Shown here: piece after piece, positions 542 to 5,846 of the stretch
Layout of the letters: every line of letters begins with the position of its first letter
Position numbering within the stretch: the stretch's first letter is position 1
DNA from: Candidatus Helarchaeota ASGARD archaeon Hel_GB_B
GTDB lineage: Archaea > Asgardarchaeota > Lokiarchaeia > Helarchaeales > HEL-GB-B
Direction: 5' to 3'
DNA length: 32,000 nt
NCBI GenBank assembly: GCA_005191425.1
Contig: SUPR01000027.1
Span: forward strand, 5,791-37,790
The notes under the pieces: model-generated
Database searches by the model: none
What the model was told of the DNA's origin: nothing
Seen by the model: the letters and a program-made list of their open reading frames with translations, nothing else
Made by a program: the position numbers and the translations under genes

Positions 542-2272
542 ATGTTTAAAATTCGGTGGTATAAAATCGAACTAGATGGCATTCTTGAAGATCTAAGAAA
601 AGATGACCTCCAGAAAATAGAGGAGGCAACAAAAAAATTATTAGATTTAGATAAAGAAGATTTTGAAAATTATGGTTTTGATGATGCTATCAATAAGATC
701 TTTGAAATTATAGAATTATTTGAAGATATTGAATCAAAAAGACCGGAATTTTGGAAAAGGCTTAAAGATAAAAAAAAGATAGAGAAATGGGATAAAATAA
801 TAGAAAATATTCGAGATAAATTGCGCGACCTTGATTTAACTTCTTATGATTTAAATGATAAGGGAATTGAAGCTCAAGATAAAGATGATGATGACCGGGC
901 TTTAATTTATTATAAACAAGCAGTATTATTAGACCCAAATTATCGGTGGAGTTGGTACAACCTTGGTAATGTATATCGAAATAAAGATAATAATGAAAAA
1001 GCAATAGAATGTTATAAAAAAGCGGTGAAAATTTACCCTGACTATGGAGATGCTTGGAACAATATGGGTAATGCATATAGCGATTTAGATAAATTAAATG
1101 ATGCATTAGAAGTCTATGAAAAAGCTGCAAGTATTGAGTCATATGAAAATAGGAATTTTCCGATATATAATATAGGGCTTATTTATGAAAAAAAAGGCGA
1201 TAAACATAAAGCATTAGAGTATTTTAAAAAAGCATTGGAAGTTAAAGGAGACTATGCTAAAGCCCAGTATAATGCTGGTAGAATTTTATATGAGATGGGA
1301 AATATTTTAGAGGCCCAAAAATATTTTACTTTAGCATTAACGAATGATTTTGAAAATTATTATAAAGATATTGCTGAATTTAATATAAATGTATATAATT
1401 TACTTGCTAAACATTTAATTAACGATTTTATTGATTTCAAGAACTTAAATGTTGACATTATCCAAAAAGATGTCAAAGAGATAATTAAAAATATTTTTTC
1501 AAGGAATTATTTTGGCGAAAAAGAAATCAATTTTTTATTAAATGATCCAGAATATATTAAAAATTGGAAAAAAAGCTTTACCACAGGGAAAGCTGAAATT
1601 ATTGAAAATTTTATAAATAATTGTCTTGCTTCTATTTTTATTAGTAAGGATGAAGATCTTTTAAATGGTTGGATAAATGAAGATATTAGTAAAATGTTAA
1701 ATAATAATGAAATTGATTATGAGTTTTTAAGAATAGAACTGATCTTAAAATTCATTAATAATTTTCCTGGAGATGAATTATCTCAAAATATTAGAGATAA
1801 ATTAAATTCTGTAATTATTGAGAGTTATGATTATTTTAAAAAGACATTTAGACTTATCCGGAATTATATTTTATCTCATAATATTAATTCAGCTGAAGAA
1901 TATATTGATAAATTTTTAGATCAAATAGAAAATGAAGAGATAAAGACAAAATATAGGAAGGAATATGTAGCAACAACTATAAAAATTTCTGAATTTTTAA
2001 GAGATTACGCATTAATCAATAATAATTTACTCTTTATAAATTTAAATGAAAAAATAATTTTGTGGTTATTGGAGAATTTAGATAATAGAGATGCTTCAAT
2101 TGAAGTTGCATTTTTTTTATTAGAATCGGTCGACTTATTTTATAAGAATAAAAAATTTGAGACCAGTTTAAAATGCGCAATAAAAGCAAAAGAATTTTTT
2201 AACAAGTTGGAATTTATTAAGGATTCTCAAAAAGTCGAAAAAATTATTAAAAAAATTGAGATATTAAATTAA
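542..2272 (+). CDS. Tetratricopeptide repeat (TPR) protein with acidic helical N-terminus and long helical C-terminus
   Basis: 576-aa ORF with five consecutive ~34-aa TPRs at about aa 101-272 (e.g. SWYNLGNVYRNKDNNEKAIECYKKAVKIYPDY, AWNNMGNAYSDLDKLNDALEVYEKAASI, IYNIGLIYEKKGDKHKALEYFKKALEV). BRE/TATA-like GAAAAGTTATTTAAAT at ~493-508. Confidence 0.9.
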   Translation: MFKIRWYKIELDGILEDLRKDDLQKIEEATKKLLDLDKEDFENYGFDDAINKIFEIIELFEDIESKRPEFWKRLKDKKKIEKWDKIIENIRDKLRDLDLTSYDLNDKGIEAQDKDDDDRALIYYKQAVLLDPNYRWSWYNLGNVYRNKDNNEKAIECYKKAVKIYPDYGDAWNNMGNAYSDLDKLNDALEVYEKAASIESYENRNFPIYNIGLIYEKKGDKHKALEYFKKALEVKGDYAKAQYNAGRILYEMGNILEAQKYFTLALTNDFENYYKDIAEFNINVYNLLAKHLINDFIDFKNLNVDIIQKDVKEIIKNIFSRNYFGEKEINFLLNDPEYIKNWKKSFTTGKAEIIENFINNCLASIFISKDEDLLNGWINEDISKMLNNNEIDYEFLRIELILKFINNFPGDELSQNIRDKLNSVIIESYDYFKKTFRLIRNYILSHNINSAEEYIDKFLDQIENEEIKTKYRKEYVATTIKISEFLRDYALINNNLLFINLNEKIILWLLENLDNRDASIEVAFFLLESVDLFYKNKKFETSLKCAIKAKEFFNKLEFIKDSQKVEKIIKKIEILN

Positions 2273-2300: not shown

Positions 2301-4937
2301 ATGACTGATAAATGTAAGTATTTAGATGAAAAAGATATTTTGGGCGAAATCTTCTATTTATGTAACATCCAAAAAAAAGGTATTTCTACCGATTTTGTTT
2401 TGGAAACATGTTTATCTCCAAACTGGAAAGATTGCGAGTTTGTATTTAGTCCATCGAAATCGCATTTAAAAGGCAAATGGAAGGAAATAATTGGATTAGA
2501 GGATATCAAAAAAGAGCTCATCCAGAAGGTCCAACATCCCTTCATTTTATCTCAGATTAAAAATATGAAAATAGAACCAGTAAAAACGCTTATTCTTTTT
2601 GGTCCAGATGGGTGTGAAAAATTATCATTGGTCCATGCATTAGCTGAAGAGAGCCATGTTAATTTAGAGACTATTTCATTCAGACAAATTGAAGAATTGA
2701 ACACAAAAATTGATGAAATTGGAGAAAATGACCCGACTATTATTTTAATTGATGAGGTAGACCTAGTTGCACCACCAATAGAATCAAAACAAGTATATTT
2801 AGCAACATTTAGAATCCAAGATCCTATAATTATATTAATGTCTGCTATTCAGAAAATTAAATCTTCTAATAAACCTATATCCTTGATTATGATTACTGAT
2901 AATCCTGATTTAGTTTCTCCATTAATTTTAAAACAGGAATATATTTCTGATATAATTTACGTTCATCCTCCAACGGAAAAAGATAGGAAGGAAATTTTAA
3001 AAAATTTATTACAAAATAAACCGCTGGAGAAAAATATTGATTTTGATTTACTGGCCAAAAAAACATTTAATTTTTCGGTGCAGGACCTTAAAAAACTAGT
3101 TAGAATAACCGAATTAAAATGGGCTGAAGATTCTTATGAAAATGAGCGAAAAATTTCAATGGACGACATACTCAAGGCTCTAAAAGAAGTAATCCCCTCA
3201 TTGACAAAATCAATGATTAAAAAATTTGAGATAACTGCGATTCGTTATGGTGCAATGGAAAAAAGGTTTAGTAAAGAACGATTAACGTGGGATGATGTAG
3301 GAGGATATGATTCTATTAAAAAGCAATTAAAAAATATTATTTCAATGTTAACATCAAGTGATATGTATAAAAAATATGATGTTAATGCACCAACAGGTGT
3401 GCTTTTATTTGGACCTCCTGGGTGTGGTAAAACTTATATTGCCAGAGTAATGGCTGATATTGCTAATGCTAATTTCATATATGCAAGCGCTCCTGATTTA
3501 TTATCAAAATGGTTGGGTGAAAGTGAACAAAAAATTCACGATTTATTTACAACCGCAAAATTAAACCCACCTACAATTCTCTTTTTTGATGAATTAGACG
3601 GAATTGCATTTGAAAGATCAAGAACAACTGATCATCCGTATTTGACGACTATATTGTCTACATTTCTATCTGAATTCTCTGATCTCCGTCCTGAAGACCA
3701 TATTTTAGTAATTGGAGCTACTAATAGAATTGAAGATATAGATCCAGCATTTCTTAGACCTGGACGTCTTGATGAGCGAATTGCAGTTCCACCACCAGAT
3801 TTTAATGCAAGAAAAGAAATTTTTCAAATTTATTTAAGAAAAGTAGAATTGAGTGATGATGTTGATTTTGATTTTTTAGCAGAAAAAACTAAAAATTATA
3901 CTGGAGCTGAAATCGCTTATATTTGTGATACCACTAAACGCAATAAAGCTTTTAAGGCTATTGAAAATGGCAAATATACTAAAATAAAAATGAAAGATAT
4001 TTTAGAAGTTTTAGATTCAATTAAACCAGATCTATCATCTGAAGATATTGATGAATTTAATGAAATGATTGAAAAATTTGAACGCCGTGGTAAATTTTCC
4101 CCTGAAATACTTCATGAGCCTATATACTGGAATGAAATTGGAGGTTTAAAAGAAGTTAAAGATTTTTTACAAAATCACGTTATACGGCCATTAATTAATT
4201 ACAGAGATGCTCTGGAATTCGGTATTACACCAAAAAAAGGGATAATTATTTACGGTTTACCTGGAACTGGAAAAACATCAATAGCAAAAGCAATTACAAC
4301 CGAATCCAATGCAAATTTCTTTAGATTTTCAGCATTAGAATTATCTAATGTCTTTCTTTATAGAACTGATACACCAAAAAGTTTTAAAGATTTGATACGC
4401 GATGCCGAAAGAGTTGCACCTTCTATTATACTACTCGAAAATGTAGAAGCTATCGATTCATTTGAAATAGCCCTTTTTATTCAAAGTGAAATTGAAAAAA
4501 TAAAAAAGGAAATTCCAATTTTAATTATATGTGAAACCAATAATTTTGAAGGAATACCTGAAATTTTAAAAGCAAGCAACCAAATTCAATATGTTGTTAT
4601 TATAAATCCACCTACTTTTGAAGAACGAATCGAAATTTTAAAAATTAAAACAAAAAATCTTATTCTTAAGGACGATTTTGACTTCAAATTTATTGCAAAT
4701 AGAACTAATTATTATACTGGTTCGGACCTTGATAAATTGATAAAAGAAGCTGCTCATATTGCCTTTACAAGGAAATTAAATAACAGTTCAAAAGATTCTG
4801 TTAAAATAAACGAGGATGACTTTTTAAATGCAATGAAAATAGTCGAACCATCACTATCACAAAAGATAATCGATGAATTCAAAAATTCAATCGACAGAAT
4901 CCAAAAAAACAAAACTCGTATTGGTTATTATGGTTAA
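2301..4937 (+). CDS. Cdc48/VCP-family AAA+ ATPase with three tandem AAA modules and C-terminal HbYX motif
   Basis: Three modules begin WKEIIGL, WDDVGGY and WNEIGGL. Walker A: GPDGCEKL (degenerate), GPPGCGKT, GLPGTGKT. The middle module has pore loop KWLG, Walker B FFDELD and SRH ATNRIEDIDPAFLRPGRLD. The protein ends RIGYYG. SD-like AGGAG at 2276-2280. Confidence 0.92.
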   Translation: MTDKCKYLDEKDILGEIFYLCNIQKKGISTDFVLETCLSPNWKDCEFVFSPSKSHLKGKWKEIIGLEDIKKELIQKVQHPFILSQIKNMKIEPVKTLILFGPDGCEKLSLVHALAEESHVNLETISFRQIEELNTKIDEIGENDPTIILIDEVDLVAPPIESKQVYLATFRIQDPIIILMSAIQKIKSSNKPISLIMITDNPDLVSPLILKQEYISDIIYVHPPTEKDRKEILKNLLQNKPLEKNIDFDLLAKKTFNFSVQDLKKLVRITELKWAEDSYENERKISMDDILKALKEVIPSLTKSMIKKFEITAIRYGAMEKRFSKERLTWDDVGGYDSIKKQLKNIISMLTSSDMYKKYDVNAPTGVLLFGPPGCGKTYIARVMADIANANFIYASAPDLLSKWLGESEQKIHDLFTTAKLNPPTILFFDELDGIAFERSRTTDHPYLTTILSTFLSEFSDLRPEDHILVIGATNRIEDIDPAFLRPGRLDERIAVPPPDFNARKEIFQIYLRKVELSDDVDFDFLAEKTKNYTGAEIAYICDTTKRNKAFKAIENGKYTKIKMKDILEVLDSIKPDLSSEDIDEFNEMIEKFERRGKFSPEILHEPIYWNEIGGLKEVKDFLQNHVIRPLINYRDALEFGITPKKGIIIYGLPGTGKTSIAKAITTESNANFFRFSALELSNVFLYRTDTPKSFKDLIRDAERVAPSIILLENVEAIDSFEIALFIQSEIEKIKKEIPILIICETNNFEGIPEILKASNQIQYVVIINPPTFEERIEILKIKTKNLILKDDFDFKFIANRTNYYTGSDLDKLIKEAAHIAFTRKLNNSSKDSVKINEDDFLNAMKIVEPSLSQKIIDEFKNSIDRIQKNKTRIGYYG

Positions 4938-5671: not shown

Positions 5672-5846
5672 TTATCGTGTTTTTTAAACTTTTTACTTTT
5701 CTATTTTAATTTTTATTATGGATTTTTGTTTATTACAATTTTTCAATTAAATTTCCGCATTTTTTTCCATTAAAAAATACAATAATAATATAAATAACTT
5801 AAATTAATACAAATTATAAAATAAATATATGATTAAGTAAGTAAAG

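Follow-up and report, generated by a model that had tools for sequence, protein, structure and literature searches.

In a window of 32,000 nucleotides (the whole stretch of DNA analysed here, positions 5,791 to 37,790 of contig SUPR01000027.1 from the Asgard archaeon Candidatus Helarchaeota archaeon Hel_GB_B), a gene for an ATPase with three AAA modules was found to end in a hydrophobic-tyrosine-X (HbYX) tail, and we suggest, with a probability of about 0.55, that this tail docks on the host 20S proteasome and opens its gate. The protein, called P0001, has 878 residues and is encoded at 2301–4937, as defined by its open reading frame (ORF) and by its Pfam and NCBIfam matches; all the features of the window given here lie on the forward strand. 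Docking is favoured because the tail tyrosine is conserved in the family, the tail belongs to the class found in Asgard PAN proteins, its position is predicted to be flexible, and the alpha pockets are intact in the 20S that the host encodes. The docking interpretation can be considered partly supported, given that every check we ran at the level of sequence came out favourable.

The C-terminus, taken from the translated codons, reads R873-I-G-Y876-Y877-G878 followed by a TAA stop (cgt att ggt tat tat ggt taa, 4917–4937), with the HbYX-type tripeptide Y-Y-G at 4926–4934. A previous reading of this DNA from its letters alone (hereafter the sequence-only reading) had described a triple-AAA protein closing on RIGYYG, and both points were borne out, since these codons do close the ORF and Pfam finds three PF00004 and two AAA_lid_3 stretches in its product. 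The C-terminus fits the pattern [LVIMGAPFYW][FY]x of Forouzan et al. 2012, taken here from PMC3493965. In the AF2 model of P0001 (mean pLDDT 79.7), a last helix at residues 854–869 is followed by coil, with pLDDT below 50 at 873–878, and the tail (residues 870–878, 4908–4934) is therefore predicted to project flexibly beyond the last AAA lid helix, a position to which the variation of the ortholog linkers also points. Endings of this kind are uncommon in the host genome (3.54 Mb in 182 contigs, 93.7% complete, with a contamination estimate of 4.9%): among its ORFs of at least 200 residues (n = 2134), a penultimate tyrosine is present in 4.4%, a [VLIMFWY]-Y-x ending in 1.6%, and a [VLIMFWY]-Y-[GSA] ending in 0.33%, that is, in seven ORFs, three of which are PAN and the two triple-AAA paralogs. 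In T. acidophilum, 63 of 1484 proteins have an HbYX-like end (PMC3493965).

The conservation of the tail carries most of the argument. Within the family, 20 of the 21 members with complete C-termini keep the penultimate tyrosine, and Y877 is near-invariant in the family alignment; across the same 21 members, position −3 is occupied by Y (6), L (8), F (5), I (1), or P (1), and the final residue is G (8), S (12), or A (1). The sequence-only reading had staked its docking proposal on the conservation of this tyrosine in orthologs, and on that count it came through. The linker preceding the tail differs in length by up to 8 residues and permits no alignment between lineages. In two orthologs with four AAA modules, the tail codons are CTT TAT AGT TAA and CTT TAC AGC TGA, respectively, so that the changes in the tail are synonymous only and the stop codon also differs. 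Outside the family, the penultimate tyrosine is found in 44 of 98 neighbouring Cdc48-like clusters and in just 1 of 28 other representatives having at least three Walker A motifs. These comparisons indicate that the tail of the P0001 family is under selection, and that an HbYX end is a trait specific to this family and not generic to its multi-AAA relatives.

The receptor needed for docking is present in the host, whose genome contains two 20S alpha and three beta subunit genes. The residues equivalent to T. acidophilum Y8, D9, P17, G19, Y26, and K66, which we take to be the pocket and gate residues of the alpha ring, are retained in both alpha subunits; among these, P17 and G19 are named as alpha-ring positions in published work (PMC3493965, PMC7077846). 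The host PAN is encoded on contig C29 (565.9 bits with TIGR01242), and its last four residues, GFYS, are also those of the P0001 ortholog P0021. PAN tails from 22 Asgard genomes are of the form Phi-Y-[G/S/A/C] in 19 cases, where Phi stands for a hydrophobic residue, and the tail of the P0001 family is of this same lineage-specific form, Phi-Y-small. In this phylum, the last residue of PAN is nearly always a small one (G/S/A/C). Of 41 Asgard genomes sampled for PAN, 8 gave no match at E ≤ 1e-120, among them the four members of one genus, all sampled genomes of which (88–91% complete) were negative. The host also has three Cdc48 genes, with the tails PYT and QYG in two of them and no motif in the third. 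A separate observation concerns locus L017 (G000 contig C150:53394-54692), a 465-residue product that matches only positions 1–436 of the CDC48 model, which corresponds to the N-domain plus one AAA module with no HbYX tail, and resembles a half-Cdc48.

In archaea, tails of this kind have already been related to proteasome activation. In M. mazei, five of five AAA proteins having the motif stimulated the 20S and two of two lacking it did not, and in T. acidophilum the stimulation by Cdc48 was lost upon deletion of its last 12 residues, the HbYX included (PMC3493965). Likewise, the PAN-like MJ1494 ("PAN-2") bound and activated the T20S (PMC11475706). Outside the archaea, PA200 docks through Y-Y-A, a working HbYX (PMC7077846), and therefore a tyrosine at position −3 is a proven variant of the motif; the human 20S shows a preference for Y-F/Y (the Y-Phi motif; bioRxiv 10.1101/2021.04.28.441858).

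As for the body of the ATPase, it begins with a mini-domain of ~55 residues (2301–2465; delimited from the alignment, with low pLDDT in the model) containing C5, C21, C37, and C45, which are invariant, along with F18 and W60, in 20 of 20 aligned family members; this is probably a small domain, presumably metal-binding, that takes the place of the Cdc48 N-domain. AAA module 1 (residues 57–322, 2469–3266), defined by its motifs and by the module tree, has neither an Ar-Phi-Gly pore loop nor Arg fingers, and its Walker A is degenerate in the P0001 subclade (GPDGCEK). Module 2 (residues 326–600, 3276–4100) is, from its motifs, the sole canonical motor, with GPPGCGKT, the pore loop KWLG, FFDELD, and RPGR in P0001, and GPPGCGKT, KW[LVY]G, FFDEL[DE], and RPGR throughout the family, the single Walker B deviation being FFDQLD in P0020; P0001 therefore has, in module 2, an AAA module of the classical clade that keeps both Walker motifs intact as well as an aromatic pore loop and Arg fingers. 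Module 3 (residues 606–869, 4116–4907; motifs and module tree), which bears the tail, has an intact Walker A (GLPGTGKT), a Walker B reading LLEN in P0001 and ending in EN, QN, ED, or DD across the family, no Arg fingers, and a non-canonical, partly aromatic pore loop without Ar-Phi-Gly. Judging from these motifs, module 3 is nucleotide-binding and yet hydrolysis-dead. The module tree groups modules 1, 2, and 3 into one family-wide clade each (support ≥100/99), and the three-module architecture is therefore ancestral to the family, while the extra module of the 1170-residue form is a duplicate of the active one (support 93/84). In the two 1170-residue relatives at L054:7846-11367 and L055:7766-11272 (genomes G058 and G041), we noticed a dead-active-active-dead order of the four modules, with a lineage-specific duplication. 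We also considered whether module 3 is an old Cdc48 D2 with a retained tail, and dropped the idea, given that the tree, with its open forks and long branches, does not place modules 1 and 3 relative to Cdc48 D1 or D2.

Based on these features, we propose that P0001 would work as a hexameric AAA unfoldase of the classical clade, from a family confined to Asgard archaea, with the four-Cys mini-domain at its N-terminus followed by a pseudo-AAA D1, an active D2, and a nucleotide-binding, hydrolysis-dead D3. Its Hb-Tyr-small tail would enter the pockets between neighbouring alpha subunits of the 20S ring, where the tail carboxylate would pair with the Lys66 equivalent and the tyrosine would act on the Pro17 turn, thus tethering the ATPase to the 20S and opening the gate, as in PAN, archaeal Cdc48, AMA, and MJ1494. 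In this mechanism, D2 would be the motor and D3 a structural, ATP-locked docking ring, while substrates or cofactors would be bound at the opposite end by the TPR-like partner protein whose gene lies upstream. Binding, gate opening, the order of the rings on the 20S, and the hand-over of the substrate are all steps that would have to take place in this way, and it might conceivably be, as the sequence-only reading proposed, that module 3 is the 20S-proximal spacer ring.

The closest known systems share some of these traits and differ in others. Cdc48/VAT is also a stacked-ring classical-clade AAA unfoldase (in sequence and in structure, module 2 best matches the Cdc48/VAT/p97 D2) having a flexible C-terminal Hb-Tyr-X tail past its last lid domain (Cdc48-20S; PMC3493965; Barthelme and Sauer 2012/2013); in contrast, P0001 has the four-Cys mini-domain instead of the double-psi-barrel N-domain, its family contains three or four AAA modules and not two, its tail is placed on a hydrolysis-dead ring, and its gene is preceded by one for a dedicated helical partner. 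With PAN/Rpt1-6 and MJ1494, P0001 shares the Phi-Y-small tail (as in Asgard PAN) and an active module with the same classical-clade motifs, but it lacks their coiled-coil/OB N-domain and has three rings against one. AMA, which we take to be a single AAA ring, is similar to P0001 as a lineage-restricted extra AAA ATPase with a conserved tail, although it belongs to another clade and has another N-domain. In AMA, present in Archaeoglobales and methanogens, the HbYX was found in all members and was read, and confirmed in vitro, as the mark of a proteasome regulator (PMC3493965). The tails of PA200/Blm10 and human Rpt5 (Y-Y-A) are similar in having tyrosine at −3 and −2 and a small last residue, and the host paralog of P0001 ends in exactly Y-Y-A, as PA200 does; PA200 is, however, an unrelated HEAT-repeat protein, and the likeness is confined to the tripeptide. 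Finally, the C-terminal ring of NSF (D2) binds ATP without hydrolysing it and holds the hexamer together, and by analogy a structural, nucleotide-locked ring of this type is the closer comparison for module 3, as a likeness only. The NSF/alpha-SNAP pair also offers the example of a TPR-like helical adaptor working with an ATPase, although NSF itself lacks an HbYX tail and is not a protease-docking ATPase.

The partner gene upstream of P0001 is P0002 (542–2272; Pfam and homology), which ends 28 bp before the ATPase gene and encodes TPR repeats (~residues 100–270) fused to a ~250-residue helical partner domain (~residues 330–576; window 1529–2269). It is this helical domain that is the conserved neighbour of the family, being found directly upstream in the three of three lineages examined. 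Residues 330–576 of P0002 match L025:359-1111 in genome G009 (E 5e-17), whose product is a 250-residue ORF located 12 bp upstream of the G009 ortholog; L025 matches the partner at L054:6470-7216 (E 1e-29, both being stand-alone forms), and the latter matches P0002 (E 5e-6). In G058 and G041, the partner is a 248-residue ORF (L054:6470-7216 and L055:6390-7139) upstream of the four-AAA genes, and a separate 548-residue TPR gene precedes it, whereas in both host paralog cassettes the partner is fused to the TPRs. In G009, no ORF of at least 60 residues was found in the 358 bp upstream of the partner gene, weak evidence given that the contig is short. The stand-alone partners also show an N-terminal C-x2-C-x(3-5)-C motif.

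The partner is modelled as a TPR-like alpha solenoid (pLDDT 83.5), and its fold search returned only generic helical-repeat or TPR-like matches, the best being a chain of a 19S subunit (Z 11.6), together with MIT-like matches for the last three helices and weak matches to the peptide-binding TPRs of Hop TPR2A, STUB1, and Sec72. We did not draw any specific homology from these fold matches, because values of Z below 13 are expected of any helical repeat. A profile search with the partner in a collection of 5.8 billion proteins returned the query itself only, and neither Pfam nor NCBIfam has a family for the partner domain or for the 206-residue helical protein encoded downstream of P0001 (5051–5671; 47% identity to L056:544-1110). 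This downstream protein is conserved in the paralogous host cassette only and is not found beside the four-AAA genes. The second cassette, L056 (G000 contig C69, 6.2 kb), contains a TPR-partner, a triple-AAA protein ending in GYYA, and a 188-residue helical protein, with identities to the C104 cassette of 50% for the TPR-partner, 70% for the ATPase, and 47% for the downstream helical protein; this second cassette may represent a genuine paralog or, considering the contamination estimate of the assembly, DNA of a close relative that was binned with the host.

Several observations weigh against docking on the 20S. The tail is placed on D3, a ring with a Walker B of EN, QN, or DD, without Arg fingers and without an Ar-Phi-Gly loop, and the ring that would face the protease is thus not an active translocating one; in the spacer-ring idea, a dead ring without canonical pore loops would separate motor from protease, and we know of no characterised AAA+ protease cap in which the protease-proximal ring is not an active motor, although no search was aimed at this point. 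In Cdc48, the D2 pore-2 loops reportedly also contribute to 20S binding, according to Barthelme and Sauer in 2013. Directly upstream there is a conserved TPR-like partner, and C-terminal peptides are frequent ligands of TPR domains. A strong match to the family-specific N-terminal 320 residues was found in 6 of 301 sampled Asgard genomes, and the triple-AAA family is therefore no core regulator. Lastly, ortholog P0004, the sole exception to the penultimate tyrosine, ends in Y-I-G. Ends of the type Y-[I/V/T]-G, with the tyrosine at −3 and not at −2, were also noticed in four archaeal Cdc48-like proteins (P0076, P0095, P0099, and P0109), and they are possibly a shifted variant of the docking tail. 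It is because of the tail on a dead ring, the pore-2 loops of Cdc48, the partner as an alternative receptor, and other conceivable uses of the tail, for a cofactor or within the complex, that we place the probability of docking no higher. For the same protein, a more ambitious architecture, namely, a three- or four-tier 20S cap built by a few Asgard archaea, where the nucleotide-locked, dead AAA ring has no other role than to join the motor ring to the alpha ring and the TPR-like solenoid delivers the substrate at the opposite end, seems to us quite improbable; it would amount to a self-contained "base plus adaptor" regulatory particle evolved independently of PAN/Rpt.

Among the other explanations, the tail may be a handle for the upstream TPR-like partner (bound by its TPRs or by its 250-residue domain), in which case the ATPase would be a stand-alone remodeller or segregase similar to NSF/SNAP, having no contact with the proteasome. 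EEVD tails bound by the TPR domains of Hop, CHIP, and Sec72 provide the analogy for this kind of handle, and the genomic position links a TPR or TPR-like partner to the tail-bearing ATPase: the upstream gene is homologous in all three lineages, with the TPRs fused to it in both host cassettes and separate in G058 and G041, and the predicted solenoid has those weak matches to peptide-binding TPRs. Nevertheless, no acidic peptide of the EEVD type (as in Hop/CHIP/Sec72 clients) was seen in the family, whose tails are aromatic and whose linkers are basic or polar, and the fold matches of the partner are those of any helical repeat. Furthermore, the tail fits the PAN class of the same phylum, which a shared 20S receptor explains; the partner could equally bind the four-Cys N-domain, where the Cdc48 and NSF cofactors bind; and the G009 partner stands without a TPR gene on its short contig, a weak point. 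All in all, we consider a partner handle unlikely.

It is rather unlikely, in our opinion, that the tail serves some other purpose, such as cofactor binding (compare the p97 tail with PUB and PUL domains), a ring-ring or double-hexamer contact, or a regulated tyrosine site, even if the conservation shows that the tail is functional and not which function it has. Cofactors do indeed use the eukaryotic p97 tail, L-Y-G, and what Cdc48-20S does physiologically is a matter of debate (PMC6008533, PMC11475706). On the other hand, neither PUB (PF09409) nor PUL (PF08324) had a match in the 93.7%-complete host genome, with the control genomes being silent too and the sensitivity therefore unproven, and the AF2 monomer predicts no packing of the tail. 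Last, a non-functional relic or a chance match is very improbable: a lone tail could be due to chance, given that ~1.6–4% of proteins end in an HbYX-like manner by chance, but its conservation in 20 of 21 orthologs, although their linkers have diverged beyond alignment, excludes chance for this one, and the synonymous tail-codon changes and the scarcity of the penultimate tyrosine in other multi-AAA relatives (1 of 28) go in the same direction.

Regarding the range of the family, full-length homologs of P0001 (38–79% identity) were found only in Asgard metagenome-assembled genomes, labelled Helarchaeota, Lokiarchaeota, or Promethearchaeota. A profile search among 1.84 billion cluster representatives gave two full-length clusters and one fragment, after which the score falls from 1462 to 675 bits. 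The six carrier genomes are the host itself, with two copies (C104 and C69), a genome from a different GTDB family, and four members of a single genus, which encode the 1170-residue form. P0001 scores below the curated cut-offs of both CDC48 (TIGR01243, 461.9 vs. 802.65 bits) and PAN (TIGR01242, 366.1 vs. 500 bits), and the Cdc48 N-domain families PF02359 and PF02933 are absent among the best 25 of its 38 Pfam matches, while its Cdc48 neighbours carry both. Among solved structures it comes closest to Cdc48/VAT/p97, chiefly on account of module 2, and the fold search with the full model returned p97/Cdc48 D1D2 only. Our literature searches, of incomplete coverage, found no description of a triple-AAA Asgard ATPase family. 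The HbYX motif and the existence of extra HbYX ATPases are already established; the P0001 family is distinguished by three to four AAA modules, a four-Cys N-terminus, a dead ring that bears the tail, and a helical partner of its own, and it probably adds a further variety to the HbYX proteasomal ATPases.

Were the partner to be the true receptor of the tail, this would be an HbYX-like tail with a use outside the proteasome, calling for caution with motif-based predictions such as ProEnd. If, as we favour, it docks on the 20S, a structurally new type of ATPase would join the archaeal "network of proteasomal AAA ATPases", with three to four stacked rings, a dead ring beside the protease, and a helical adaptor of its own. 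The Asgard archaea are the lineage closest to eukaryotes, where the regulatory particle became elaborate, and with docking this family would reveal if a motor and a protease can be coupled through a passive AAA ring and how extra proteasome caps with their own adaptors arise.

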